A stretch of DNA of 64,000 bases from Deinococcales bacterium (GTDB lineage: Bacteria > Deinococcota > Deinococci > Deinococcales > JAAFIG01), in NCBI GenBank assembly GCA_043778225.1, contig JAYWGM010000032.1:32001-96000 (forward strand), read 5' to 3'. Made by a program: the position numbers and the translations under genes. The notes beneath the pieces are model-generated. The model had not been told where the DNA came from, ran no database searches, and saw only the letters and a list, made by a program, of their open reading frames with translations. Shown here one piece after another: positions 18,409 through 31,640 of the stretch. Numbering within the stretch: the stretch's first letter is position 1; each line of letters starts with the position of its first letter.

Positions 18409-19509
18409 ATGTTGAATTGGTTACTGGTGCTGGTCCCGATAGCGTTTATCCTCGAGTTTTTTGTTCACCCTGGGGATATGTGGATATTTATCGTCTCAGC
18501 CGCCGCAATTTTACCCTTGGCGGGCTTGATGGGCAAAGCCACCGAAGAACTGGCAGCCCGCACTGGCGCAACCATTGGCGGCTTACTCAATGCCACCTTT
18601 GGCAATGCGACCGAGTTAATCATTGCCTTTTTTGCTTTGTCGGCTGGAAAATTTGATGTTGTGAAAGCCAGTATTACTGGCAGCATTATCGGCAATCTAC
18701 TGTTGGTGCTTGGTCTAGCCCTCTTTTTAGGTGGCTTAAAATACCCCAAACAAACTTTTAACCGTGAAAGCGCTGGTACAGCCGCCAGTTTATTGGTCAT
18801 CAGCGTGATTGCTTTTTTAGTCCCCGCCCTATTTGACATCACCGAAAAGCAATTTGGCATCTCGAGCGCCCAAGTGAAAATAGATGATGCTAACCTTGCG
18901 CTCGGTGTTTCTTTTGTGCTGCTGGCATTGTATGCCGCCAACATTATATTTACCTTAATCACCCACAAAGATATTCTATCCACTTCCGATGAAGCCGAAG
19001 CTGAGCATCATGTCACCCAATGGAGTGTGCCAGTCGCCCTTGGCGTGTTGCTGGGTAGCACCGTGTTGGTTGGCTTTATGTCCGAATTTTTGGTCGGCAG
19101 CATCGAAGGCTTTACCAAGACTTTTGGCTTGTCCGAATTTTTTGTCGGTCTCATTATTATTCCAATTGTTGGTAACGCTGCCGAACACGCCAGTGCGGTG
19201 GTTTTTGCGATGAAAAACCGTATGGGTTTAGCGATTACGATTGCTGTTGGCAGCACCATTCAAGTGGCATTGTTGGTTGCTCCAATTTTGGTTATTTTAT
19301 CGTGGGTGATTGGCAAACCAATGGACTTGGTGCTGAACAACCCGCTCGAGATTGTGACTTTAATTGGTGCGGTTTTAATCGGTAACAGTGTGACAAGGGA
19401 CGGTGAAACCAACTGGCTCGAGGGATTTATGCTGCTTGGTGTCTATGTGATTCTAGCGCTGGCGTTTTTCTTTCTGCCTAATCCAACAGGTATTGCTGGG
19501 CATGGGTAA
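18409..19509 (+). CDS. cax: Ca2+/H+ antiporter (CaCA family)
   Basis: GGLLNATFGNATELII and GNAAEH alpha repeats; TACACT 6 nt before ATG. Confidence 0.92.
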   Translation: MLNWLLVLVPIAFILEFFVHPGDMWIFIVSAAAILPLAGLMGKATEELAARTGATIGGLLNATFGNATELIIAFFALSAGKFDVVKASITGSIIGNLLLVLGLALFLGGLKYPKQTFNRESAGTAASLLVISVIAFLVPALFDITEKQFGISSAQVKIDDANLALGVSFVLLALYAANIIFTLITHKDILSTSDEAEAEHHVTQWSVPVALGVLLGSTVLVGFMSEFLVGSIEGFTKTFGLSEFFVGLIIIPIVGNAAEHASAVVFAMKNRMGLAITIAVGSTIQVALLVAPILVILSWVIGKPMDLVLNNPLEIVTLIGAVLIGNSVTRDGETNWLEGFMLLGVYVILALAFFFLPNPTGIAGHG

Positions 19510-19565
19510 AACTTGCAATTCTTGAGTGACTGTGCGACAATCCCAAAGCTCGAGAGATTACTCGA

Positions 19566-19640
19566 GGGCGGTTAGCTCAGTGGTAGAGCATTCGCTTCAC
19601 ACGCGAAGGGTCGCTGGTTCAAATCCAGTATCGCCCACCA
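19566..19640 (+). tRNA. tRNA-Val (anticodon CAC); 3' half probably supplied by the integrated element
   Basis: GGGCGGT/ATCGCCC acceptor stem, TTCGC-TTCACAC-GCGAA anticodon arm, GGTTCAAATCC T loop, encoded CCA. Confidence 0.96.
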
Positions 19641-19645
19641 TACAG

Positions 19646-19677
19646 ACGCATTACTTGTAAAAATACGAGTAATGCGT
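19646..19677 (+). terminator. Hairpin downstream of tRNA-Val (element-supplied terminator)
   Basis: ACGCATTACTTGTA-AAAA-TACGAGTAATGCGT 14-bp stem with one G-U, followed by TT. Confidence 0.65.
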
Positions 19678-19723
19678 TTGCTTATTATCCAAAGGTGAGC
19701 CTACTCACAATTGGCGGTTTCGC

Positions 19724-21295
19724 ATGACCCGCCGCTCGAGTTCCAAGACAGCCCCGAAGCTGGTTAATCAGGTGATCGATACTTTGATGATTCGCCTTAG
19801 CAAGAACGCCCAGCCTTCCCAGTGGCTGCGAGATGTTCAAAAACAGGTGATTGAGTACCGTGCCAAACTCGAGCAGAAACCAGACCTCGAGAAGTTGGTA
19901 ATTCAACACCCGGACCTTGGCAGCTTGACGGTATATGCTCGTACCGGTGGTCATTATGACTTTGGCTTGTCGAATCCTAAAATCTGTGAAATCAAAGTCT
20001 GGAATCCTGACAAGTGGGATAAAGCTGTTGCTGGTCAGACTGGACAGTTTTACATCACCTTTCGTTCTGAGTTCTTGCAATTCAAAGGCACACAAGCCGC
20101 CATAGAGTACCTAGGGTTGCTCGAGGCGGTCATGTGCAGCCCTGAACCGCTCGAGGTGCTAGAAATGCCTAGAGGTGTCTCGCCTGACTTCTGGCGTGTC
20201 TCAAACATAGACTTAACGGTAGATACCCAAGAACCTCGAGGTATGAAGTGGTCAGACCTTGACCTGTATACTTGCCGCTCTAAAAAACGGGATGCTTTTA
20301 AGAAACTGATGCTCGAGGGCATTTTTGATAGAATGATTCGGGACACCAAAAAAGCCCCCCCAAGGAATAACAAGGGGGGTGGAAACGGAAACGCAAAACC
20401 AAACCCACACGCCCCACACGAACAGAATCTAATACTCCATTCCGTTTCCCTAAAAAGTAAGGTTGCTGAATTAGCGGCGGTTCGGAATATAGACACGGAC
20501 AATTTGACATGGGTACTCGAGCGAACCCTAAGCGGTGTTGGTTTTGACCCAGACTTGGGCGAAGTCACACGGGTTGTGAGTAATGGCTCGAGTGAACTTC
20601 AAACCGTGTATTTTGGGCGTTACCAAAGCCCATTGTTTGCAAGGCGTTACGATAAACTTAACGCTCTTGCTGTGCATGGCAAAGAATTTATGCGTGATGT
20701 CTGGCTTCAAAATGGTTGGGATGGTGAATCACCCGTTTGGCGGACTGAGTTTAGGCTGTCAGGTGACTTCCTACGTGCCATAGAAATAGATGGCGCAGTG
20801 CTTGACCTGCGAGATTTTGGGATGTGCTTACTGGCAATCCCTAGACTCTGGCAGTACCTGACCCATGAATGGCTGGTACACCATACAGGTAGCCCTTACA
20901 ATGTCAGTCACGATGCAATCAGAAAACGCCCAGCCTCGGAACTTTGGACAATTATTCAAGGCGCTCATAACGCGGGTGAGGCTGGAATTGTCAGAGCGAA
21001 ACAAGAACCTAAGCCGATTCTCGAGCAGTTACAAGCCCAAGTCAAAGGTGTTACTACAAGCCTGTTAGCCAAAATGGACAGCCCAAGGTTTAGGCGTTCA
21101 ATCAATACTGTGACAGGTGAGGTTTTTGACCCTCTGACCGAATTTATAACCAGTATTGCCAAGTATTTTGGCTCAGATGAAGGTGCAAGCAAAATTAAAG
21201 CCCGTCAAATTTACTTGGGGCTTGACCCACTGAGCGACACTGCCTTATCTAATCTCGCTCGAGCCGAAATCATGGCGCTTGGGCGCGGGTCATGA
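19724..21295 (+). CDS. Rep_trans-family rolling-circle replication initiator / MOBT-like relaxase
   Basis: VSNIDLTVD, QTVYFGRYQSPLFARRYDK (catalytic Tyr region) and VWRTEFRL follow the Rep_trans motif order. Confidence 0.78.
   Translation: MTRRSSSKTAPKLVNQVIDTLMIRLSKNAQPSQWLRDVQKQVIEYRAKLEQKPDLEKLVIQHPDLGSLTVYARTGGHYDFGLSNPKICEIKVWNPDKWDKAVAGQTGQFYITFRSEFLQFKGTQAAIEYLGLLEAVMCSPEPLEVLEMPRGVSPDFWRVSNIDLTVDTQEPRGMKWSDLDLYTCRSKKRDAFKKLMLEGIFDRMIRDTKKAPPRNNKGGGNGNAKPNPHAPHEQNLILHSVSLKSKVAELAAVRNIDTDNLTWVLERTLSGVGFDPDLGEVTRVVSNGSSELQTVYFGRYQSPLFARRYDKLNALAVHGKEFMRDVWLQNGWDGESPVWRTEFRLSGDFLRAIEIDGAVLDLRDFGMCLLAIPRLWQYLTHEWLVHHTGSPYNVSHDAIRKRPASELWTIIQGAHNAGEAGIVRAKQEPKPILEQLQAQVKGVTTSLLAKMDSPRFRRSINTVTGEVFDPLTEFITSIAKYFGSDEGASKIKARQIYLGLDPLSDTALSNLARAEIMALGRGS
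20354..20380 (+). other. Candidate double-strand origin / nic hairpin inside the rep gene
   Basis: GCCCCCCC-AAGGAATAACAA-GGGGGGT: polyC/polyG stem with TAACA in the loop. Confidence 0.7.
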
Positions 21296-21328
21296 TTTTG
21301 GCTTGAGTGACTGGCAAAGCTAAAAAGC

Positions 21329-21754
21329 CTAAGAATGCTCGAGCATTGCCAAAAACGTTGTCGGGTCAATCACAGCAGTCTGTCCAATGTTCCCCAGTGG
21401 CAACAAATGGCGCTTATCACTGCTCACAAGATAGTCAGCTTGCCCATTGATTGCCATGCTTAACAGGTACACGTCTTTGCGGTCTGGAATGCTTGGCTCG
21501 AGTCCAGTTGTGAAAGGACTAACTTCTGTACCTAACGTTTTAATCTGGCTTATCAGCGTTTCGACTCGAGCGCTTTTAAGTCGGGTAATCAGCTTGGGAT
21601 ATGTGGCTACTTCCCGAATCTCAAAGAACTGGTAATCGCTGTACAGCAATACAAACGCCCCACCCATCCAATAATCAAGTATCAAACCCTTTTCGGCTTG
21701 TGGGGCGAGTAAAGCAGAGATAAAAACATTGGTATCCAGAATGACGCGCTTCAT
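21329..21754 (-). CDS. PIN-domain toxin
   Basis: VILDTNVFISALL..DRKDVYLL..ADYLVSSDKRHLL. Confidence 0.92.
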   Translation of the reverse strand: MKRVILDTNVFISALLAPQAEKGLILDYWMGGAFVLLYSDYQFFEIREVATYPKLITRLKSARVETLISQIKTLGTEVSPFTTGLEPSIPDRKDVYLLSMAINGQADYLVSSDKRHLLPLGNIGQTAVIDPTTFLAMLEHS

Positions 21755-21981
21755 GCAGTGCCACGAATGGCGGCTAGAGCTTCTTCGGCTAAGGCATCGG
21801 CTTGCTCTGGCGTTAAATCCGCGTTTGCTTCGTCTGGCTCGAGAATAATAAGGCGGTTGCGTTCAATCGCTTCTAAAGCTGTGAATGCTCTGGTCATGGC
21901 ATCTTCTCGGGTCATACCTCGAGTGCTGCGAATCGCATCTAAGCGGCTTAGGTTGTCGGGTGAGACTTCAATCAGTGGCAT
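21751..21981 (-). CDS. Cognate antitoxin (RHH-like)
   Basis: MPLIEVSPDNLSRLDAIRSTRGMTREDAM, acidic C-terminus, ATGA overlap with the toxin, TACAAT 6 nt before ATG. Confidence 0.75.
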   Translation of the reverse strand: MPLIEVSPDNLSRLDAIRSTRGMTREDAMTRAFTALEAIERNRLIILEPDEANADLTPEQADALAEEALAAIRGTA

Positions 21982-22178
21982 GGATGAATTGTATAACAGC
22001 TTGCTCGAGGTGTCTGTATTCCCTCGCGGCGGTGGTTGTTCACAAGTGCGCGGTCCAGTCTGTCCGGGCGCTCGAGTCTCATGAGTCAAAACCCCTAGGC
22101 GAAGTTAAGACAATTGCGTTCGATGCTGAGACAAATCCAGCCGGATAACTTGCTGCTCGAGCAAGTAAACTTGCAAAT

Positions 22179-22421
22179 ATGCAGACCAAAACTTTTACTC
22201 ATACCCAAAAGCGAAGCAAGCGCGTGGTTGTAATTTACGATGTTCCTATAAGTCGAACGTTACCCGATGGCACAGAGCTTTTAAGTATGCCCATTGCAGA
22301 ACAAGTTGATAGCCTACTGAATCGCGCTCTAGCTCTTGGGATGCCTAGAGTTGAATTATGGTTTATAGTAAAAACTAAATCCAGTAAAAAAATCGATGCT
22401 AAGACAAATCCAGTCGAATAA
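22179..22421 (+). CDS. Small hypothetical protein
   Basis: TAAACT 7 nt before ATG; VVIYDVP..GTELLS resembles a Cys-less YgiT/MqsA-type N-domain. Confidence 0.55.
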   Translation: MQTKTFTHTQKRSKRVVVIYDVPISRTLPDGTELLSMPIAEQVDSLLNRALALGMPRVELWFIVKTKSSKKIDAKTNPVE

Positions 22422-22482
22422 CCCTAAGACGGTTACTGCTGCGTGGCTGTGGTTTGCTGCTCGAGCGAGTAAACTTATAAAT

Positions 22483-22647
22483 ATGCAAAACACAAATATC
22501 AAACAAGCATGGGCAAAACTGGCATTACTGGTTGGTGCGGTGGTCGTTGTAAAGGTTGTGGTCTCAAAAATGCCACCAATTGCCAAAGGTTTGACGGGTC
22601 AGGTTCTCGAGCGTAGCTTATCAGGCATTATGCAAAAAATTGTATAG
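22483..22647 (+). CDS. Small basic single-TM peptide (54 aa)
   Basis: TAAACT 7 nt before ATG; WAKLALLVGAVVVVKVVVSK hydrophobic helix. Confidence 0.55.
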   Translation: MQNTNIKQAWAKLALLVGAVVVVKVVVSKMPPIAKGLTGQVLERSLSGIMQKIV

Positions 22648-22741
22648 ATTCTCGATATTTTGCCCATAAATTGTATAAATATGCAAAAAACTACATACTC
22701 GAGCCTGTTGTAAGCTGTTTCATGATTTCTCGAGTTTTTGT

Positions 22742-23020
22742 GTGCGGTGGTTGCCAGTGAAGCCAGTAATTGCCGTACTTGGCTTGGCGGTCAATCCAAT
22801 TGTTGATGAGTTCATAGAGTGGGGTAAGCAACTCGAGGCAATCAGCAACAAACTAAAACAGATGCGGCGAAAGCACCCCAAGCGCGAGGACTTAGAAATA
22901 GAGTTCTCCATTCTGCTGATGCACATAGAGATACGCTCGAGGTGCTTGCAAGAAACAATTGACGAAGTGGAAGAAGCAGAATACGAAAAACGCAAAAAGA
23001 AGAAAAAGAAAGCCAAATAA
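22742..23020 (+). CDS. Hypothetical coiled-coil protein, start uncertain
   Basis: Charged helical ORF with a poly-Lys tail. Confidence 0.45.
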   Translation: MRWLPVKPVIAVLGLAVNPIVDEFIEWGKQLEAISNKLKQMRRKHPKREDLEIEFSILLMHIEIRSRCLQETIDEVEEAEYEKRKKKKKKAK

Positions 23021-23079
23021 AACACGGTATACACCGACTCTGGACACGTTTTTTCTGGTGTCGAACGTGCGAGACCGTT

Positions 23080-23118
23080 AAATGGATTGACCGTGATTTT
23101 TACATGGTCAATCTATTT
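23080..23118. other. 16-bp hairpin in the convergent intergenic region (terminator or single-strand origin part)
   Basis: AAATGGATTGACCGTG-ATTTTTA-CATGGTCAATCTATTT with two G-T pairs. Confidence 0.5.
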
Positions 23119-23270
23119 TTAACCTAAAATTCTTGGCACGGTTTACCAATTTGGCGTTTATGCCTGTTTACGCTTTGCAAACACACGAAGCATAGTAACC
23201 GTATATTCTGCGTGCTACACAATAGGTACTTAAAATCGTTTACCCGTGCAGTACCAGTAAACTCGAGCGT

Positions 23271-23753
23271 TTACGGCTTAGAATTCGATTGCTTTTGAAG
23301 CTCGAGTAAAGCCTGTTCTTTGGTTATGCCATTTCTTATAAAATCCCAAAATTGGAAACGTTGTTCTTGATTAAATGGCTGTAAATACTCAGGTACACGA
23401 CTTTTTGACTTGTCCCTGTACTCATCCAAAGAAACCCCTTTATCTCTAGCTGTCAAATGGTCAGACCAAGCACTTACGAGCCTACTAAGTTCAGCCGTTT
23501 TGTTTGTGATTCGTTGGCGGTACTCCTTCCAGTTTGAAGGTGGTGGTTCGTCTATTTCAAAAAGTACGCCTACTGGCATTTGGCGGGTATCCGAAGAATT
23601 AAAAACCTTCAAACGAACATACTCAGAAATAGTTAAGCCCTGCTCTTCTGCAATAATCTCCAGATACTCTCTAGCTTCTGGGGAAATTGTCAAACTTATT
23701 TGATTTCTTGGACTAGCTGCTCGAGGTCGTCCTATTTTTCCATTTTTGGTCAT
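23271..23753 (-). CDS. Ribbon-helix-helix DNA-binding protein (putative element repressor)
   Basis: GRPR..QISLTISPEAREYLEIIAEEQGLTISEYVR; TATTCT 7 nt before ATG. Confidence 0.75.
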   Translation of the reverse strand: MTKNGKIGRPRAASPRNQISLTISPEAREYLEIIAEEQGLTISEYVRLKVFNSSDTRQMPVGVLFEIDEPPPSNWKEYRQRITNKTAELSRLVSAWSDHLTARDKGVSLDEYRDKSKSRVPEYLQPFNQEQRFQFWDFIRNGITKEQALLELQKQSNSKP

Positions 23754-23774
23754 ACACACCAGAATACTGTTTTG

Positions 23775-23857
23775 CACCTCAAAAAATACTTTAAGAGTTG
23801 CATTTTTACTTTTTGAGGTGTAATGTAATCGCATCTCAAAAAACGTAAACGAGATGC
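23775..23857. promoter_or_regulatory. Paired inverted repeats in the divergent control region (candidate operators)
   Basis: CACCTCAAAAA...TTTTTGAGGTG (23775-23820) and GCATCTC...GAGATGC (23831-23857). Confidence 0.6.
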
Positions 23858-24014
23858 AAGTGAATAATCGAGTAGTGAAAACACAAGTTTATTAAGTCCT
23901 AGAAACATTTTTTCCTGTATCGAACGCTCGAGTCAAGCGTGACATTTCTCAACTGATATACGAAACTGGTCTCTAGGCAAAAACGTAAACCAATTCAGAT
24001 AAGGAGTAACAAAA

Positions 24015-24266
24015 ATGGCGCATACAAGAATTTGTAAAGTCCCTGACGCAGTTCACAGGCGCGTTATGGCACTTTCGGAAGAAAAAGGAATCACTTTCGC
24101 GGCTGCGCTCGAGGTTCTGCTTGAACGTGGCGAGGCAGCACTTGCAGAACTCGAGGCGCGTGGTCATCGGATGCGCCCATTACCCCCACTTACGCCTAAG
24201 AATCTCGGCTTAAATTCGTCCGTGAATGGTTTTAACCGTTCTGCATCTCGTTCAATCAATTTTTAA
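24015..24266 (+). CDS. Small RHH-like DNA-binding protein
   Basis: RICKVPDAVHRRVMALSEEKGITFAAALEVLL; RBS AAGGAG. Confidence 0.7.
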   Translation: MAHTRICKVPDAVHRRVMALSEEKGITFAAALEVLLERGEAALAELEARGHRMRPLPPLTPKNLGLNSSVNGFNRSASRSINF

Positions 24267-24274
24267 GGAGTTGT

Positions 24275-24949
24275 ATGGCTAAACTTGTTTATCCTGAAAG
24301 TATCGAAGCCCGTGCGCTTGAGTACAAAAATAGTGGTTATAGCGCCCAAGAAACCCTGTACGGTTTGCAAGCTGATTATCCAAACTTGGCAAGTCAAATC
24401 AGGCTCGAGAATGATTCTGTCCTTCCGCCCCTCACCCCAAAGGGTCAGCCATTGTCAGGTGTTGGTATTGCTGCCGATGCTCTCGCCCAAGCCCTCGAGA
24501 AGGTCTACTTCAAAGGGCGCGAGGATGTGCAGCAGGACATCAAAATAGAAGAGCAAGAACAAAGAATCGAAGAACTCGAGGCGCAACAAATGACCCTCGA
24601 GGGTTTGGCTCGGGCTGCTCTGAGTGGTCAAGTTAATCACTTGCAACAACACCAAGCCTTAGAAGATGGCACAATCAAAAGGCTGTCCCCTGCTGATTCG
24701 CTCATGGCAATTATTGCCGAACTCGAGAACGCTGGACTTGACCCTCAATCTATTATTGCATCGCTTCCCAGTGGTGCAAAAGGTTTTGCCGAGAAGCGCT
24801 TAAAGGGCTTGCCCACCACACAAGCCGATGAACAAGCGCTCGAGGATGACCAAGCAGAATTCGACGAAGAAATTGAACAAGAAGAATACGATGCTGCTGC
24901 TAAACGGTTTAACGAGTTTGCAAAACAAAAAGAGAAGGGTCTCAAGTGA
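24275..24949 (+). CDS. Acidic coiled-coil hypothetical protein
   Basis: RBS AAGGAG; 224-aa ORF in the operon. Confidence 0.75.
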   Translation: MAKLVYPESIEARALEYKNSGYSAQETLYGLQADYPNLASQIRLENDSVLPPLTPKGQPLSGVGIAADALAQALEKVYFKGREDVQQDIKIEEQEQRIEELEAQQMTLEGLARAALSGQVNHLQQHQALEDGTIKRLSPADSLMAIIAELENAGLDPQSIIASLPSGAKGFAEKRLKGLPTTQADEQALEDDQAEFDEEIEQEEYDAAAKRFNEFAKQKEKGLK

Positions 24950-25236
24950 ACACCTTGAATGTTGACCCAAAAACGGCGGCTATGGTGGTAGTCGCCGCCA
25001 AAAAAGCGGGTGCTGCTCAAGCCCTCGAGACTGGCAAACTCGAAGGTAAAAGCACAGGCTTAACTTTTGGCTTTGCTGCTGCTGGATTGCTTGGCGTGGC
25101 AGCCGTTGCTTTTGTTGTTCTGCAAAATAAACAAAGCAACGACAAAAAAGAAGCCGACAATCAAAAGCAGTACACGGCAGCCCTCGAGAATCGGGTTATG
25201 CGAATTCCAGAGGAACAAAAACGGGCGTACCTATGA
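24946..25236 (+). CDS. Single-TM hypothetical protein
   Basis: GTGA overlap; FGFAAAGLLGVAAVAFVVL helix. Confidence 0.7.
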   Translation: MNTLNVDPKTAAMVVVAAKKAGAAQALETGKLEGKSTGLTFGFAAAGLLGVAAVAFVVLQNKQSNDKKEADNQKQYTAALENRVMRIPEEQKRAYL

Positions 25237-25409
25237 CCCTAGAGTCTATCAAAGTTGGTATGACTGTTTTTAGTGGCTTAGGCAAGGCGTACAAAGTTCT
25301 CGAGGTGGATAAAAAGCAGCGCTTCCCTGTTCTTGTGCAGAGCTTGACCAATGGCACGACAGGACGCTTTTCACCCTCGAGTCTGCACATTCAAAAGGCG
25401 GCGTATTGA
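25233..25409 (+). CDS. 58-aa protein missed by the ORF track, SH3/KOW-like pattern
   Basis: ATGA overlap; MTLESIKVGMTVFSGLGKAYKVLEVDKKQRFPVLVQSLTNGTTGRFSPSSLHIQKAAY fills the operon gap exactly. Confidence 0.7.
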   Translation: MTLESIKVGMTVFSGLGKAYKVLEVDKKQRFPVLVQSLTNGTTGRFSPSSLHIQKAAY

Positions 25410-25411
25410 CT

Positions 25412-25744
25412 ATGCCAATGCTTGAAAGCCCAAGAATTTATTACGAAGGTCGAATCTTGTTTTGGTTGGCACAATATGGTAAAGCCAACGGCAAAAAACT
25501 CGCAAAGCAAATGTCACTCGAAACCGTTACCAGTTCTACAACTTTTTCCTTACTAAAATCTTTAGTTAAAGTTGGGAAAATTGAAATTGTCAAAAAAGGT
25601 AGTGAACCACATCTAAATGTGTATGCTTTAAGCTCTAAAAAGCCAGTAAAAGATGAAGCCAGAAAATCAAATACACCTTTTAAGCAATCGGTTGCCAAAC
25701 CAAAAGGCGGCGGTTTTTTTGCGCGTTTGTTTCGTGGTCGTTAA
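25412..25744 (+). CDS. Winged-helix DNA-binding protein
   Basis: ILFWLAQYGKANGKKLAKQM..SSTTFSLLKSLVKVGKIE..VYAL. Confidence 0.7.
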   Translation: MPMLESPRIYYEGRILFWLAQYGKANGKKLAKQMSLETVTSSTTFSLLKSLVKVGKIEIVKKGSEPHLNVYALSSKKPVKDEARKSNTPFKQSVAKPKGGGFFARLFRGR

Positions 25745-25828
25745 TTCGTCCTCTCACCCGTATTGACGGTGCAAAGAAAAGACCACGCTCTACATACCTT
25801 GCCGGGTAAGCGTGGTCAAAAGGAAACT

Positions 25829-26155
25829 ATGAATACTGTAGCCGAAAATCATCAAAATATCAACTCTGTCTTTACACCTGAACAGCAAGAAGCCTTTGAA
25901 AATCTTGCTCGAGCCATGCGTTACTTTAATAAAAATGCGCTTCATGGTTGCCCAACAATCAAGGATTCTGATAATCTCGAGGCTTCGATATATCGCGTTA
26001 TTGCGTTACTAAGCGGCGCTTCGGATAATCATCATATTAAAGCGATGGCTCTGAAAGCCTTTGCTGATGCTTTGCGTCTGGCTAACCTCGAGTCCCTGAG
26101 CGGTTCGCGCACTTCCGAAGATAGCCCACTGTTTGGAGGTGCTGCCCATGTCTAA
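25829..26155 (+). CDS. Hypothetical protein
   Basis: RBS AAGGA before ATG; overlaps the next gene. Confidence 0.65.
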   Translation: MNTVAENHQNINSVFTPEQQEAFENLARAMRYFNKNALHGCPTIKDSDNLEASIYRVIALLSGASDNHHIKAMALKAFADALRLANLESLSGSRTSEDSPLFGGAAHV

Positions 26156-26558
26156 CTTTCTTGGTTTAGTGGTCGGTACACAACCAACAGCATCGTCTGA
26201 AAATTCATTTACTGCTTTTACCTCAGTCATTCCAGATGTTGACTCGAGTTTCTTTAGGCGTGGTGTGTTCTCTCGCCATGCGGGTTTCTTGACCATCCCA
26301 CGTACTGCCGATGTAACGGCACTGACAGAACAGTTTGACTCTTGGTTGCGTGTCCATCCTGATGTCCGAATCTGGAAAAGCATTTGTGAAATCCATTCAA
26401 AATCAGCTTTGTTTGTCCTGTATATCTCGAGTGAAACATCAAAAACACACTTAAAAGAAGCCTTAAAAAGTTTGTGCATTCACTTAAAAACACAAAAGTA
26501 TTTACAGTCTGGTTGCCGTTGGATAAATGTGCTTGACCGGGGAGTTGAAATAGAATGA
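26148..26558 (+). CDS. Hypothetical protein
   Basis: RBS GGAGG; overlaps both neighbours. Confidence 0.65.
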   Translation: MSNFLGLVVGTQPTASSENSFTAFTSVIPDVDSSFFRRGVFSRHAGFLTIPRTADVTALTEQFDSWLRVHPDVRIWKSICEIHSKSALFVLYISSETSKTHLKEALKSLCIHLKTQKYLQSGCRWINVLDRGVEIE

Positions 26559-26737
26559 GTAAGCCTGCCCGTATCCCTGCCATTGTCATCCGTGCCGATT
26601 GGCAAGCCGAAAATCTCGAGCAGAAAGCCCTCGAGCGTCAAGAAGCCCGTCTCGAGTTTCGCCGTGAATTGGCAACCCTCGAGCGTGAAGAACTGAGAAT
26701 TGAAAAACTTGAGGACGAATCTGAGGTGTCACCATGA
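26555..26737 (+). CDS. Small coiled-coil protein
   Basis: ATGA overlaps at both ends. Confidence 0.6.
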   Translation: MSKPARIPAIVIRADWQAENLEQKALERQEARLEFRRELATLEREELRIEKLEDESEVSP

Positions 26738-27114
26738 CCCGTGCTGTTATGGCGTTGCTGCTGGCTGGTACGCCCCTGTGCATTGCTGCTCGAGCGGCAC
26801 AGGCTTGTGATTGCGATGATTGCGGTAAGCGTTCGTCTGGCTTGGCTCGAGGCTCAATCAGTGCCTTTAATCGCTTTGGTGTGGCTGTTCTCCATTACTG
26901 CCCTACTTGCACCAAACAAGCCCCGCCTTTGCTGAGTTTGTATGGTCTGAATGCTGTTTATATCAAGTCTGCCAAAGACCAGACTTTCAAGCCGTTGCCT
27001 GTCTCTGCCCCAGAACCAAAAGCCATTCAAAAAATCAACAGGAAAACCCAGTTTAGGCGCTTACAAGAACTTGGTCATGGCTTCCCGTGGCAACGTCAAA
27101 GGCGTTACTCATGA
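26734..27114 (+). CDS. Putative zinc-finger protein
   Basis: CDCDDC...CPTC; RBS GAGG; ATGA overlap with the integrase. Confidence 0.6.
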   Translation: MTRAVMALLLAGTPLCIAARAAQACDCDDCGKRSSGLARGSISAFNRFGVAVLHYCPTCTKQAPPLLSLYGLNAVYIKSAKDQTFKPLPVSAPEPKAIQKINRKTQFRRLQELGHGFPWQRQRRYS

Positions 27115-28217
27115 CCAAACGCATTCTTAAAAATCAGAACAATCCAAAATCCAAAGCCTTATCTGTTGTGGATTCGTCACCCTCGAGTATTTACGGGCGT
27201 GGTGCAGCCGATAGAGTCGCGGGTCTAACGACTTTACAGCGTGGTGTTTTGCCTACGCCTCAAATGCTGCTTGGTGTTTGGCTCGAGCATTTTGTGACTT
27301 CCGAGACCCACACCCAGACCCGTAGCACCAAGGTCAATGCAAGGTCTTATCTAAAGCGAATCCTGCCCGAATTAGGCGGGGTTCGTTTGGGTACAATTAA
27401 CCCGCTTATGTTGCGTTCGTTTATGGATTCAATCACCGATTTTTCGGGTAGTACCCAGCAGAAAATCCATGGCTTACTGAAACGTGCCTTGCAAGATGTG
27501 GTTAATCTCGAGGTGTTGGCACGTAACCCGATGAATGCGGTTAAACGTCCAAAGCTAAAACCAGTCAATGAGACTGAACCGCTCGAGCCTGAACAGGTCG
27601 AGAAACTGGTGAAGCTCTTAGTCGGTCATCGGCTCGAGTTGCTGTTTCATCTTTGCTTGGCGTGTGGCTTACGAATCGGTGAGGCGTGTGCTTTGTGTTG
27701 GGATAATCTGCGCGGGTCGGTTCTGCAAGTCAACCACACCTTAAATCGTTTGTACTCTAAGCAAAATGGCGAAAAACTCTTCCATCCTGCCAAGTCGGGT
27801 AGCGCTCGAGAATTGCGTTTAGATACTGGCACACTGGCATTGTTTGCCCAGCACAAAGCCCAACAAGACCAAGAACAAAAACACCAAGGTTTGGGCTTTA
27901 ATCCATTTGCTTTGGTCTTTGTGTCTACCACTGGCACACCTTTGGATGCCAAGAATTTTTATAACCGTGTGTTTAGAGACCTTCTCGAGCAAGCTGGACT
28001 ACGCGCCCAAGGAACTCACGCCATGCGTAAAACCTATGCCACTTTGGCGGCGGTGATGCTACCGATTCAGGATGTACAGCAAAGACTCGGACACAAAGAC
28101 CCGCGTATGACTTTGCGGGTTTATGCCAAGAATCAGGCACGGCGAAATGTCAAAGCAGCTATTCCACTGTCTGAACTGATTGCAGCTTCAAAGATTGACG
28201 AGGATACGAATGTTTAG
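27111..28217 (+). CDS. int: Tyrosine recombinase/integrase
   Basis: GLRIGE (R), AKS (K), HAMR (HxxR), LGH, TLRVY (Y): complete catalytic set. Confidence 0.95.
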   Translation: MTKRILKNQNNPKSKALSVVDSSPSSIYGRGAADRVAGLTTLQRGVLPTPQMLLGVWLEHFVTSETHTQTRSTKVNARSYLKRILPELGGVRLGTINPLMLRSFMDSITDFSGSTQQKIHGLLKRALQDVVNLEVLARNPMNAVKRPKLKPVNETEPLEPEQVEKLVKLLVGHRLELLFHLCLACGLRIGEACALCWDNLRGSVLQVNHTLNRLYSKQNGEKLFHPAKSGSARELRLDTGTLALFAQHKAQQDQEQKHQGLGFNPFALVFVSTTGTPLDAKNFYNRVFRDLLEQAGLRAQGTHAMRKTYATLAAVMLPIQDVQQRLGHKDPRMTLRVYAKNQARRNVKAAIPLSELIAASKIDEDTNV

Positions 28218-28296
28218 TATTTTGGGGTCATGGTTGGGCGTGGGTTTTTCTCACGTCACACAAGCAATTTTCCAATACTATATAAAAGTAAAGCAT

Positions 28297-28341
28297 TTCA
28301 CACGCGAGAGGTCGTAGGTTCAAATCCTATACCGCCCACCA
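28297..28341 (+). repeat. att site: displaced 3' half of tRNA-Val
   Basis: TTCACACGCGAGAGGTCGTAGGTTCAAATCCTATACCGCCCACCA; no 5' half upstream. Confidence 0.93.
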
Positions 28342-28346
28342 TTTCA

Positions 28347-28375
28347 AGGACACACTCTTTCGGTGCGTCCTTTTA
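28347..28375. terminator. Terminator after the displaced tRNA end
   Basis: AAGGACACAC-TCTTTCG-GTGCGTCCTT-TT. Confidence 0.65.
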
Positions 28376-28388
28376 ATTTCTCGAGCCG

Positions 28389-29624
28389 TTAAAAACTTAA
28401 ACTCAGCCCAAAACGAATCTGAATTCCAAACACCCCACTTGGATTGAGGCTCGAGCCTAACGCACCATAGTTCAAACCAGCATTGGCTTTGAAACTTAGA
28501 CCATCCGCCAGTGTGTAACTTAAATTCGGTGCGAAAACCCCACTTCCATCGGTCAGGCTTTGAACCCAAGCCGCACTGAGGCTGGTGCGATTATCGAGGG
28601 CATAACTAGCAATGAGCGCCGCGTTAATGCAAAATAAATCGGCTTGATTCATTTCTCCTTTTTGCCATCGTAAATTCAGAATTCCAGTCAAACCAATTTC
28701 AGCAACTCGAGCTTCGGCTTGGGCTGTAAAAGCAAAAGCATGATTGCCAATCTCAGGATTTGTACCATTAGGGTCTTGGGTAAAGGTATACGACGTTTCG
28801 GCACGCACCGCAATTTCACCAAGGCTGATGTTCGTTTCTAAGCCAAGCACATGAATCCAATCGTAATTAAATACGGGCTGCACAATGAATTCGCCTGCTT
28901 GCGCCGTGGGCAATAACCGAATTGTGGGTGTGGGTGTGTGCCGAAACCCACCGTAAAAACTAAGGCTAAAATCTGCCCCATCAAACACATTAAGGTTACT
29001 CGAGAAACGCAGCCCATACTGCGTATTTTCAAGCCGAGCGGTAGGGCGATTATCCAGTACAGGATTCTGTCCGACAATGGTTACTCCCGGCGGTGGGGTT
29101 GGGGCTGGCAAGGCAAATACGGGCAGCACACTTGGGGTAAATCCTGGCGCAAGCACACCCTCGAGACGGGTATCATCCGAAAAATTCCAGATGGCACGAA
29201 TGGCAGGAATCGCAATTTGAGTTTGGGTGGTTAAATCTGACGGATTGAGATTACTGACCGAACCCAGTACATCCACTGCGCCCCAGTTCATCAGTAAATT
29301 CCCAGCGCTCAAATCAAAAGCACCAACATAAGCCGTGATGAACGTTTCGCCTAAAGTTACTCGAGTTGTACTGGTTATGGCATCGAAGTTTGATCGCAAA
29401 TTAGCATTAAAAGCAGCCGTAGGGGAATCTTCTGCGCCGAGTGAACCCGAGAATTTCAGGGTAAAAGCCGTGTTGCCCAGTACCGCACCACTCGAGACCA
29501 ACCCGAATTGTGCCTCGAGAATACCGCCGATAGAGAACCGAAAATTACTTTGAGCATCCTCGGTTTGAGCCAAGCCACTCGAGCAGAACAGCAAAGCAAC
29601 CAGCATTAACACTATTTTACGCAT
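28389..29624 (-). CDS. Outer-membrane beta-barrel protein (DUF1302-like context)
   Basis: Signal peptide, LMNWGAVD..NLNPSD motif, C-terminal FGLSLSF. Confidence 0.7.
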   Translation of the reverse strand: MRKIVLMLVALLFCSSGLAQTEDAQSNFRFSIGGILEAQFGLVSSGAVLGNTAFTLKFSGSLGAEDSPTAAFNANLRSNFDAITSTTRVTLGETFITAYVGAFDLSAGNLLMNWGAVDVLGSVSNLNPSDLTTQTQIAIPAIRAIWNFSDDTRLEGVLAPGFTPSVLPVFALPAPTPPPGVTIVGQNPVLDNRPTARLENTQYGLRFSSNLNVFDGADFSLSFYGGFRHTPTPTIRLLPTAQAGEFIVQPVFNYDWIHVLGLETNISLGEIAVRAETSYTFTQDPNGTNPEIGNHAFAFTAQAEARVAEIGLTGILNLRWQKGEMNQADLFCINAALIASYALDNRTSLSAAWVQSLTDGSGVFAPNLSYTLADGLSFKANAGLNYGALGSSLNPSGVFGIQIRFGLSLSF

Positions 29625-29634
29625 AACAAAATCC

Positions 29635-30384
29635 TTATGGTTGTTTCAAAAATCGTTCTGTGAAGACACTATCGGCTATTTGTACGTCCATTTCGATACT
29701 GGTTTGCTTGAAGGTACTTTTTGAACCTTGTGAAATGGTTTCCATCGAAAGCGATTTAATGACGTTATAACCTTTGACTACAACCATCTCGAGGGCGCGA
29801 AGGGTCTTAAAAACCTTATCGCCCTTGTAGTAATCGGTTTTTAGGGTGTTTAGGGTTTTATTCTCGATTTCAAAAACAATTTTGTCGTAACTGTTGCCTT
29901 TTTTAGCTTTGGCTTCGATAATGTATTTGTCATTGTCACTCGAGAGTAAGTTGTAATTGAAGTCCTTGATGTCTGAGCGTCCAAGGTCGCAGTAACTAAA
30001 GTCCGAGCCAAAAAATGCCCCGTCGCAGTCGCTCGAGTCGCCGCCGCCTGTGGCTAGTCGGCGGGTTCGCCCTAGGGCGGGTAAGTACAGCAGTGTTTCG
30101 GTTACACCATTTTTCTTGATGCTAAGTATCCCACTGCCTTTAATATCGGCGGGCGCAAGGAATTTTATCAAACTGCGGTCATTACTTGCCCATGATTTCA
30201 TGGTGCGCGACAGGGTTTGACCATTTTTACTAATCTCGAGGTTCAGTGTACCAATGCTGGATTTTGGCGTTGGGCGGTCATAGGCGGCTTGCATCACCTC
30301 GAGTCCAGTCTTGTAGCTTTGGTTCTGGGCGAGGGCTAATGCGCCAATGGTGGCGATAATGGTGGTAATAACGATTTTTTTCAT
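29635..30384 (-). CDS. LolA-like outer-membrane lipoprotein-sorting protein
   Basis: FLAPADIKGSGIL..YLPALGRTRRL..FFGSDFSYCDL..FTERFL. Confidence 0.88.
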   Translation of the reverse strand: MKKIVITTIIATIGALALAQNQSYKTGLEVMQAAYDRPTPKSSIGTLNLEISKNGQTLSRTMKSWASNDRSLIKFLAPADIKGSGILSIKKNGVTETLLYLPALGRTRRLATGGGDSSDCDGAFFGSDFSYCDLGRSDIKDFNYNLLSSDNDKYIIEAKAKKGNSYDKIVFEIENKTLNTLKTDYYKGDKVFKTLRALEMVVVKGYNVIKSLSMETISQGSKSTFKQTSIEMDVQIADSVFTERFLKQP

Positions 30385-30395
30385 GAGTTTTTCCT

Positions 30396-31640
30396 TTACT
30401 TACTTGCCATGACAATGCCAAGGCACATTTCATCGGTGGTGGCTTCTGCCCACATCACATATTTGGGATTGGTGGCTTTTTCACCAATGATTGGTTGATT
30501 CTCAACTGAGTTATCAAATACACAAGTGGTGCGAATGACATCGTTGGGTTTAATTTCTACTGGTGTTCTAAACCAGTAATTGCCTTGCCAGTGATAATCC
30601 CATTTTGGAATGTGCAACAAGGTTTTGGCGCTGCTGGTATCGGGGTTCAGTTCGATTTTGATGCTCTTTGCCAGTAAGTGCATATGTCCACCTATCGAAT
30701 AGAGGGTGGTGGCGGCTCGAGTTTGTTGGTCGCAAGTGCTAATCACATTGCTGGCATCTCCGACTGGTTTTTGGTACTGTTCGGCAGTTTGTCCACACAG
30801 TTGCAGAATGCCATTGGGCAAGAAAGAACCCGCCAGTACGCCGGCTCGAGCCACATTTTCACGAATCGTATTTTCTCGAGTACAAGTAGGTGTTTTGATA
30901 TTATCAGGACATTTTATTTCGACAGGGGCAACTTGTAATTGGGATTTAATGGCGGTCAGTTGTTTGCCTTCTGGGGCAATGCTTATTTTAACTTTGGATT
31001 GGTCAGAGCCAATGCCGTTATTGAGGTTGTAATGCACTTCCATGACAATCAAAGAATCTTTTGGCATGGGGTTGCCGATACCATCTGGAAAATGACCATC
31101 GCCTGCGCCAGGAACCCAAACGCTTAACCAATTACCGCCAGCCGTTCCGTTCTGAGGATTATCCACTTCGAGTCCAGGACCTCCAAAACAACTCCAGCCT
31201 TTGCCTTGGGTGGCTTTGTCCTTGGCGAGGACACTGGCGGCTTGGTTGGGTTCGATTTTATACAAAATCGCATGATGCACAATTTTTCGGTTTCCGGGAA
31301 TAATTTCTACGCCAGTCACCATTACATCGCGCTTGAACTTGGGATTAACCAAAAAGCACTGGTAAACATCTAATGACTTCGTACCATCTGGGGTGAATGG
31401 CACTTCGGAGACATCAAACTCGAGTGTTTCATCGCCGTTAGCGGCATACGCATTGGAAAGCGAAATTGGGAAATCCGATAATGCCTGAAATTGTCCTTGT
31501 CCACGGTGATTATTTCCAACCTGCGCCGCCCCGAGATTCAAACGAATCTGCGAGGTCTGAGCCAAAAATGCGATACCAGTCACACCGAGTGTCAGTGCGG
31601 TTAAACCTCGTGTCCAACGCCAAATTTGTTTAGGATTCAT
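30396..31640 (-). CDS. Exported copper type II ascorbate-dependent monooxygenase (PHM/DBH family)
   Basis: CuH ligands VHHAIL and EVHYN; CuM ligands GHMH and DEMC; WDYHWQGNY; N-terminal hydrophobic leader. Confidence 0.88.
   Translation of the reverse strand: MNPKQIWRWTRGLTALTLGVTGIAFLAQTSQIRLNLGAAQVGNNHRGQGQFQALSDFPISLSNAYAANGDETLEFDVSEVPFTPDGTKSLDVYQCFLVNPKFKRDVMVTGVEIIPGNRKIVHHAILYKIEPNQAASVLAKDKATQGKGWSCFGGPGLEVDNPQNGTAGGNWLSVWVPGAGDGHFPDGIGNPMPKDSLIVMEVHYNLNNGIGSDQSKVKISIAPEGKQLTAIKSQLQVAPVEIKCPDNIKTPTCTRENTIRENVARAGVLAGSFLPNGILQLCGQTAEQYQKPVGDASNVISTCDQQTRAATTLYSIGGHMHLLAKSIKIELNPDTSSAKTLLHIPKWDYHWQGNYWFRTPVEIKPNDVIRTTCVFDNSVENQPIIGEKATNPKYVMWAEATTDEMCLGIVMASK

Follow-up and report, generated by a model that had tools for sequence, protein, structure and literature searches.

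The window analysed here, 64,000 nucleotides of contig JAYWGM010000032.1 from a Deinococcales bacterium (genome G000), contains an 8.7-kb integrated element that is inserted in a tRNA-Val(CAC) gene and in which all open reading frames (ORFs) are intact. At its left end, the element encodes a rolling-circle replication initiator (Rep) with a predicted origin inside the gene, and at its right end, a tyrosine integrase. Between the two lie a toxin-antitoxin (TA) pair, a divergent pair of ribbon-helix-helix (RHH) genes and an operon of small genes that continues into the integrase gene (Table 1).

The boundaries of the element are defined by a 46-nt direct repeat, the two copies of which are 85% identical. 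Comparison of the copies confirmed the spacing of 8,701 bp, between 19596 and 28297, that had been given in an earlier reading of this DNA (hereafter, the original prediction). The repeat corresponds to the 3' half of tRNA-Val(CAC), and its first base is the start of the 7-nt anticodon loop. The 11 leading nucleotides are identical and all 7 mismatches lie beyond them, so the earlier description of the att cores as intact holds for the crossover region and not for the whole repeat. The 3' half of the tRNA gene now in place at 19566-19640 was likely supplied by the element, attR is likely the displaced host 3' half, and the hairpin that follows attL is likely a terminator for the restored tRNA. 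In the usual scheme of tRNA integration, the element brings a new tRNA 3' half along with a terminator, and the hairpins after attL and attR fit this scheme. The site is free of the element beside the same host gene in all 4 same-genus loci for which this gene was fetched (L049-L052); in G004, the downstream host gene comes one other ORF after the tRNA. No arm-type repeats of 9 nt or longer were found across attP, Rfam over the element returned the tRNA only, no match of CRISPR-spacer length to the element was found in its own genome, and the promoter and terminator counts are at chance level.

Table 1. Features of the element, with positions in the 64,000-nt window (dN/dS, ratio of non-synonymous to synonymous substitution rates; z, folding stability relative to shuffled sequences).
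Feature	Position	Strand	Basis and remarks
tRNA-Val(CAC), integration target	19566..19640	+	tRNA call, Rfam, repeat geometry
attL	19596..19641	+	repeat begins at 7-nt anticodon loop TTCACAC
Element-borne hairpin, 17 pairs	19643..19680	+	z -5.6; left end near-identical in G003, G005, G007
Rolling-circle initiator, divergent Rep_trans subfamily, 523 aa	19724..21295	+	predicted fold, residues; dN/dS 0.09 vs G001
Predicted double-strand origin	20355..20379	+	C7 / G6 stem, AAT^AAC in loop; within rep
PIN-domain toxin	21329..21754	-	PF13470 E 1e-15, TIGR00305; dN/dS 0.09
Putative antitoxin, 76 aa from ATG 21981	21751..21981	-	overlaps PIN start; dN/dS 0.12
Duplicated non-coding unit	22120..22495 (copies 22120-22191, 22393-22495)	+	each copy ends at ATG
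Three small variable ORFs: 80 aa, 54 aa hydrophobic (from 22483), 92 aa	22179..23020	+	sequence
Putative RHH repressor, 160 aa, leftward arm of divergent switch	23271..23753	-	weak matches
RHH-like protein, first gene of rightward operon	24015..24266	+	fused to ORF224 in G003
ORF224	24275..24949	+	family signature; small N-domain, 65-residue helix, helical domain; no known family
ORF96	24946..25236	+	glycine-zipper and one predicted membrane span; kept in siblings; dN/dS 0.29
ORF58	25233..25409	+	dN/dS 0.07 vs G001
Winged-helix protein	25412..25744	+	MarR E 0.001; C-terminal amphipathic tail
ORF108 (within ORF130)	25829..26155	+	relatives kept in 7/19 family genomes
ORF136 and ORF60	26148..26737	+	no assigned function
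ORF126, Cys-rich, zinc-finger-like	26734..27114	+	dN/dS 0.26
Tyrosine integrase, 368 aa	27111..28217	+	PF00589 E 2e-18; dN/dS 0.14 vs G003
attR	28297..28342	+	repeat; host-type terminator hairpin directly after

The integrase carries the full catalytic set (R, K, HxxR, H and Y motifs) and is complete, as originally predicted. In a tblastn search of genome G000 at E 1e-3, it is the sole tyrosine-recombinase match.

The assignment of Rep rests on its predicted structure. Neither Pfam nor NCBIfam, including PF02486, gave a match to this protein at E<=0.1, with the same outcome in a genome-wide search, and three of its homologues show sub-threshold matches to PF02486 (E 6e-4 to 7e-3). Against the PDB, Rep retrieved nothing by sequence and, by profile, 4cij only, at an E value of 0.34 that was not accepted. 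A model built on 56 homologues (predicted local distance difference test, pLDDT, 82.7) matches the RepSTK1 and RepDE structures (4cij, 4cwe and 4cwc) with Foldseek E values of about 1e-5 and a VIA Z score of 12.2 (root-mean-square deviation 4.1 over 226-229 residues), the next family, TBP, scoring Z 6.3. By these measures, the modelled Rep has the crescent ten-stranded fold of RepSTK1 and RepDE. Residues D163, D167, Y296 and E342 are present in all 56 homologues, and D19 in all 50 that cover this position. Assigned by motif, they provide three acidic metal ligands, D19, D163 (with D167) and E342, along with the motif-III tyrosine, Y296, and fit motifs N', I, III and IV of Rep_trans, the roles of which are taken from PMC6499999. 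The earlier identification of a Rep_trans initiator is thus upheld for the fold, the catalytic tyrosine and the acidic residues, and fails for the Pfam match and the motif-I arginine. By sequence, Rep comes close to not matching Rep_trans, the outcome that had been named as fatal to the original prediction, and the predicted fold averts it.

The predicted origin was first noticed as a conserved PPxxNKGG in a disordered loop of Rep. At the nucleotide level, the motif consists of a C run followed by TAACAAGGGGG (window 20355-20379). It is a single copy in the 4.0-Mb genome; 26 of 32 related loci, some of them duplicates of one element, have it on the rep strand, 6 of these outside rep. The Asn, Lys and Gly codons are invariant among the in-gene copies, and the T that precedes AAC is constant even though the residue specified by its codon varies (N, D, F, C or G). 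In Rep_trans origins and MOBT nic sites, CT^AA is located in the loop of a G/C-rich hairpin (PMC9371924), and because the conserved motif resembles such sites, Rep is predicted to nick between 20368 and 20369. A depth-2 contig of a relative from sequencing run X5 contains a 12-nt duplication exactly at the predicted nick (window 20367), which may be an error.

Relatives of the element are present in the same bacterial family, with three complete siblings found among 18 genomes other than G000 (19 in all). The 6.5-kb sibling in G003, inserted in tRNA-Val(TAC), shares its left end with the element and encodes an 84%-identical integrase and a HUH Rep recognised by Pfam, and its att repeat also begins exactly at its 7-nt anticodon loop. 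The sibling in G014 (8.1 kb, tRNA-Pro, 45-nt repeat) encodes a 37%-identical integrase and a Rep that is HUH-like by inspection and similar to that of G003. The third, in G007 (3.5 kb, tRNA-Val(CAC), both att sites), encodes a canonical Rep_trans protein (E 1.5e-27) and a 46%-identical integrase and lacks ORF224 and ORF96. All three combine an integrase with a rolling-circle initiator. Partial members were found in G001 (a 90%-identical Rep right after tRNA-Pro), G005 (integrase, att and Rep, the latter behind a tRNA-Val(TAC)-type att), G016 and G017. The gene order Rep, optional TA, divergent RHH pair, ORF224, ORF96, variable genes, ORF108 and integrase is kept in G000, G003 and G014; around a set of unknown genes that the siblings share (RHH, coiled-coil and membrane peptide), three initiators and several integrases are exchanged.

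Most of the genes in the element appear to be maintained by purifying selection, with dN/dS values of 0.07-0.29 against the siblings for 7 of the 8 genes tested, ORF60 being the exception. A 64-aa frame overlapping ORF126 is not considered a gene because its dN/dS is 0.92, compared with 0.26 for ORF126. As originally noted, no terminase, capsid, Zot, VirB4 or coupling protein is recognisable among the 18 ORFs (Pfam, PHROGs and NCBIfam), none of which contains a Walker A motif. The divergent RHH switch that had been proposed is supported through the sibling equivalent of the repressor (RHH_1, E 1e-6), the element's own protein giving weak matches to a NikA-like family (E 0.003) and to the PHROG 876 repressor (E 2e-5). 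In the proposed TA pair, the PIN toxin is well matched (PF13470, TIGR00305) and its upstream partner has no family match; the pair is best regarded as cargo, because close copies occur in other settings in G003 and G007. The duplicated non-coding unit is present as a single copy in G007, upstream of a different gene, and weakly similar paralogues of the 80-aa and 92-aa ORFs exist at other places in the genome. ORF108 is a candidate excisionase by conservation only. Hairpins between ORFs at about 23080-23118 (z -3.5) and, within 25740-25840, at 25780-25817 (z -3.3) are candidates for terminators or single-strand origins; folding of the 22010-22500 region yielded no stable candidate for such an origin (z +0.6 to -0.6).

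ORF224 is the signature of the family. It was detected in 4 of 201 genomes of the order and, with a wider profile, in 5 of 351 genomes of the phylum, the fifth being a weak match outside the family. Its relatives form 20 representatives at 50% clustering, and the 10 that were looked up are all named 'hypothetical' only; Pfam on 24 relatives found no family common to two members. The ORF224 model (pLDDT 76, predicted template modelling score 0.40) matched no viral fold at E<=0.001, and the best ESM Atlas feature scores for ORF224 and ORF96, 0.77 and 0.84, are leads only. ORF224 was not found in viral contigs by a scan that did not use its wide alignment. In a narrow comparison with four provirus-like loci, neither ORF224, ORF96 and ORF108 nor the membrane proteins of the sibling found a match. 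The original suggestion that the unknown ORFs are helper-hijacking or interference factors gains no support from these searches or from PADLOC, which matched 0 of 15 element ORFs.

The word usage of the element is host-like. CTCGAG occurs at 6.2 per kb in the host genome and at 6.8 per kb in the element, which contains no GGCC and none of the 14 hexamers avoided by the host (25.5 expected). Sharing of the CTCGAG excess and the complete avoidance of these words point to long residence in the host family. In the window as a whole (1-64000), as in the host genome, GGCC and the 14 hexamers, GGCGCC, GACGTC and TGCGCA among them, are almost absent.

The locus is probably occupied by an integrative rolling-circle element that excises from tRNA-Val(CAC), copies itself and moves as a hitch-hiker on machinery that it does not encode. 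This interpretation draws on the boundaries, the intact genes, the fold and catalytic residues of Rep, the conserved origin motif, purifying selection and the siblings at three tRNA genes. In the proposed cycle, the RHH pair would repress the rightward operon, which ends in int, until induction. Int would then recombine attL with attR within the 7-nt anticodon loop, releasing an 8,701-bp circle, and Y296 of Rep would nick at 20368/20369, displace the plus strand and copy the circle. The PIN pair may guard the circle against loss, ORF224, ORF96 and the winged-helix protein may tether circles to the membrane, and a strand or circle would reach a new cell and reintegrate at a tRNA anticodon loop.

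Several observations weigh against this cycle. The activity data are contigs from six runs (X1 to X6), and contigs drop rare forms; no attP or credible attB joint of the element was found in the six contig sets, and in run X1, which like X2 may be the source of this DNA, one unitig covers 18525-30500, that is, the element and both flanks, at flat depth. The excision frequency of ICETh2 is only 1e-4 to 1e-5 (PMC7693054), and given such rare excision and the loss of rare forms from contigs, these data indicate a stably integrated state in those samples only. The int-att-rep order in G005 could equally stem from a tandem array, as in G007. The origin hairpin is no more stable than shuffles (z -1.1), its loop has AT^AA instead of CT^AA, and the motif is missing in 6 of the 32 loci, in Zuza8 and in L043. 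The motif-I arginine of Rep (R140 of RepD), which is called strictly conserved in Rep_trans in PMC4797284 and is present in 50 of the 56 homologues, is replaced by Asn161 in the element and likewise in G001, G005 and P0002; purifying selection since this change argues that Rep still works. ORF60 has a dN/dS of 0.69 over 31 codons. A basic-hydrophobic tail that would suit membrane tethering ends 9 of 24 aligned ORF224 relatives and not this element's copy; the winged-helix protein of the element carries such a membrane-anchor-like tail. We take these tails to resemble the MinD membrane anchor. As for helpers, VirD4 and Zot gave no match in the element's genome, which is 89% complete and in which TcpA-type coupling proteins were not searched for, and RCR-type (rolling-circle replication) relaxases seem to require coupling proteins of the TcpA type (PMC5704250).

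Joints that skip the element in runs X4, X5 and X6 were rejected as evidence of an empty site: their sides are short or contain foreign letters, and other tRNA genes are their most likely source. Four other studies contributed one run each in which fragments of related elements occur, with a likeness of roughly 85-100%.

The least secure part of the mechanism is transfer. We tentatively rank first a conjugative helper, with Rep acting as a MOBT-like relaxase; VirD4-type genes occur in 9 of the 19 family genomes and not in that of the element. Uptake by natural competence, as for the ICETh elements, is a possible route by analogy and ranks second, ComEC being present in the element's genome. 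Packaging by a filamentous phage is a doubtful third, and transfer by a module of the element's own would be the unlikely fourth. A search for HerA/TdtA-like proteins yielded two weak matches.

Of the competing explanations, the one that survives best, unlikely as it is, holds that the element is a filamentous-phage satellite, its single-stranded circle being packaged by a co-infecting inovirus in the way RS1 is by CTXphi (satellite RS1 is treated in PMC11389934, which also cites a plasmid that is an inovirus satellite). Relatives of Rep are encoded by Thermus filamentous phages (5 records, Zuza8, phiOH16, OH3 and Zuza27 among them) and in six Zot-bearing loci; in metagenome and viral contigs, relatives were missed by single-protein scans and detected by alignment-based ones. 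The gene II initiator of the Paulinoviridae members OH3, phiOH16 and Zuza8 is related at 31-34% over 120-150 aa, and the occurrence of Rep relatives in Thermus phages and Deinococcus lacus fits a Deinococcales host. Rolling-circle replication, kept by all three complete siblings, yields the right substrate, and an inovirus-like region is present in the same genus (L080, G007:C14:2000-9000). However, circular contigs of 2-4 kb that carry no phage genes encode this Rep at least as often; relatives are found on 13 plasmid records, including 1.75-kb Synechococcus plasmids, and on small circular contigs, at least 10 of the 32 loci having terminal repeats of 123-127 nt. A tree of 28 rows mixes plasmid-like with phage-like rows and places the element Rep with a methylase-bearing contig (support 100/99), not with the Zot loci. 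The G007 inovirus shares nothing with the element beyond chance matches of 20-26 nt, Zot is found in that 1 of the 19 family genomes, and the viral-contig scan for ORF224, within the limit given above, was negative. Unlike the Thermus phages and RS1, the element has no recognised gene for a single-stranded DNA-binding protein (SSB), coat, attachment or assembly; the pI/Zot ATPase is absent from its ORFs, which have no Walker A motif, and from a genome search; and the Thermus phages lack the origin motif of the element (L039). The L080 region itself comprises Rep, an SSB-like protein, small membrane proteins and Zot, and similar regions occur in Deinococcus lacus (L036, with tandem copies 7.5 kb apart, and L037) and in G057 (L043).

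There is a rather small chance that the conserved block of RHH, ORF224, ORF96 and ORF108 is a small transfer or membrane-export module in its own right, which would make a helper unnecessary. The block is retained while Rep and the integrase are exchanged, it includes a membrane peptide and a long coiled coil along with the basic-hydrophobic tail of some ORF224 relatives, and in G016, it continues into Rep and then into an ORF that we take to be M23-peptidase-like. Conversely, there is no ATPase motif in the 18 ORFs, the 3.5-kb G007 element has both att sites yet neither ORF224 nor ORF96, and ORF224 has no structural match among viral folds or in the ESM Atlas. Likewise improbable is a variant in which the block would be a membrane module of a new type that works without an ATPase, capturing what rolling-circle replication produces and passing it on to a helper or to adjacent cells; if true, it would explain the free exchange of three unrelated initiators and several integrases with the block kept. 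Least probable of all, the element would be a stranded relic, derived from a filamentous prophage or a plasmid by loss of structural genes and mobility, to which the six contig sets without excision, the fully host-like word usage, Asn161 and the dead remnant of this Rep type in G007 would lend themselves, but the ORFs are all intact and under purifying selection, no remnants of coat or Zot genes were found, and the presence of a 90%-identical Rep at tRNA-Pro in G001 and behind a tRNA-Val(TAC)-type att in G005 requires movement.

The hitch-hiking rolling-circle element has described counterparts. It has its own integrase and att sites and an RCR-type protein with a predicted origin, and no full mating pore, as expected of an integrative mobilizable element (IME). 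Streptococcal IMEs carry several RCR-initiator families (Rep_trans/MOBT, Rep_2, PHA00330 and Viral-Rep), and 35 of 118 are without a coupling protein (PMC5704250). The element resembles them in the tyrosine integrase, the interchangeable rolling-circle initiators, the frequent lack of a coupling protein and the TA cargo of some members, and differs in belonging to another phylum, in a Rep below the Pfam threshold and in the conserved unknown block with membrane features; conjugative mobilisation is known for IMEs and is here inferred. ICETh2, from Thermus thermophilus HB27, and relatives of 7.5-12 kb occupy a tRNA-Val site and encode an integrase together with a replication module, to which some strains add a TA pair (PMC7693054). 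Shared with the element are this site, a repeat of 46 nt (47 nt in ICETh2), the integrase at one end, a replication module, TA pairs in some members, a majority of unknown ORFs and, presumably for the element, transfer functions that are encoded elsewhere. In site and repeat length, the element fits the description of Int2-type integration in ICETh2 (tRNA-Val, a repeat of 45-50 bp). ICETh2, however, has a primase-polymerase and helicase, no match to which was found among the 18 ORFs, and a known excisionase, whereas the element encodes a rolling-circle initiator whose origin is predicted to lie within its own gene.

Rep itself shares the Rep_trans fold, the three acidic ligands and the catalytic tyrosine with pT181 plasmids, RepSTK1 and the MOBT relaxases of ICEBs1, Tn916 and ICESt3 (PMC4797284, PMC6499999), and its predicted origin shares T^AA in the loop of a G/C-rich hairpin with the pT181 and MOBT origins (PMC9371924). 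It departs from them in its 523-aa length and long insertions, an identity of only 12-16% when aligned by structure, the AT^AA loop, a model without an N-terminal helix-turn-helix and Asn in place of the motif-I arginine. Phage-inducible chromosomal islands (PICI) and P4-type satellites have primase-helicase replication and capsid or terminase redirection genes; these features had no PHROG or Pfam match in the element.

The original prediction proposed an undescribed system. This is valid for the family, no published description of which, or of the Rep subfamily, was found in a literature coverage that leaves out most subscription journals, and not for the kind, given the streptococcal IMEs and ICETh2: the kind is known and the family undescribed. 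The finding extends integrase-bearing rolling-circle hitch-hikers to an uncultured host family and reveals a modular build, with one gene block, three initiator types and three tRNA targets (tRNA-Val(CAC), tRNA-Val(TAC) and tRNA-Pro). A Rep_trans subfamily not recognised by Pfam is also defined, which has members on small plasmids, in filamentous phages and in integrated elements and for which the nick is predicted to the base. The tRNA-Val loops targeted by the 84%-identical integrases of the element and of G003 differ at 3 of 7 bases, a case of natural target switching.

Some further loci bear on the history of the family. In tandem behind the intact 3.5-kb element of G007 lies a rep remnant (L041, G007:C5:4588-4811) in which residues 1-40 are joined to 460-523, the catalytic core and origin being gone; it is an internally deleted copy of the rep type of the element. 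At L051 (G006:C7), an otherwise element-free tRNA-Val is directly followed by a split gene, perhaps cargo left behind, the counterpart of which in G007 lies after the duplicated non-coding unit. In L074 (G016:C745:948-4839), a contig without an integrase, the ORF224 operon continues into a HUH-like Rep followed by the presumed peptidase ORF; this contig may represent the family in plasmid form. L085 (G095:C67:299-1433), from a different family within the order, contains a divergent RHH-like pair, a weak ORF224 match (E 1.5e-5) and then a membrane ORF. The nearest integrases outside the family, at 33-38%, are those of the regions L061, L063, L065 and L067, which, with ATPase-like and capsid-like ORFs, resemble proviruses of the P23-77 type; one of these regions is also weakly matched by the RHH repressor (E 2e-4).

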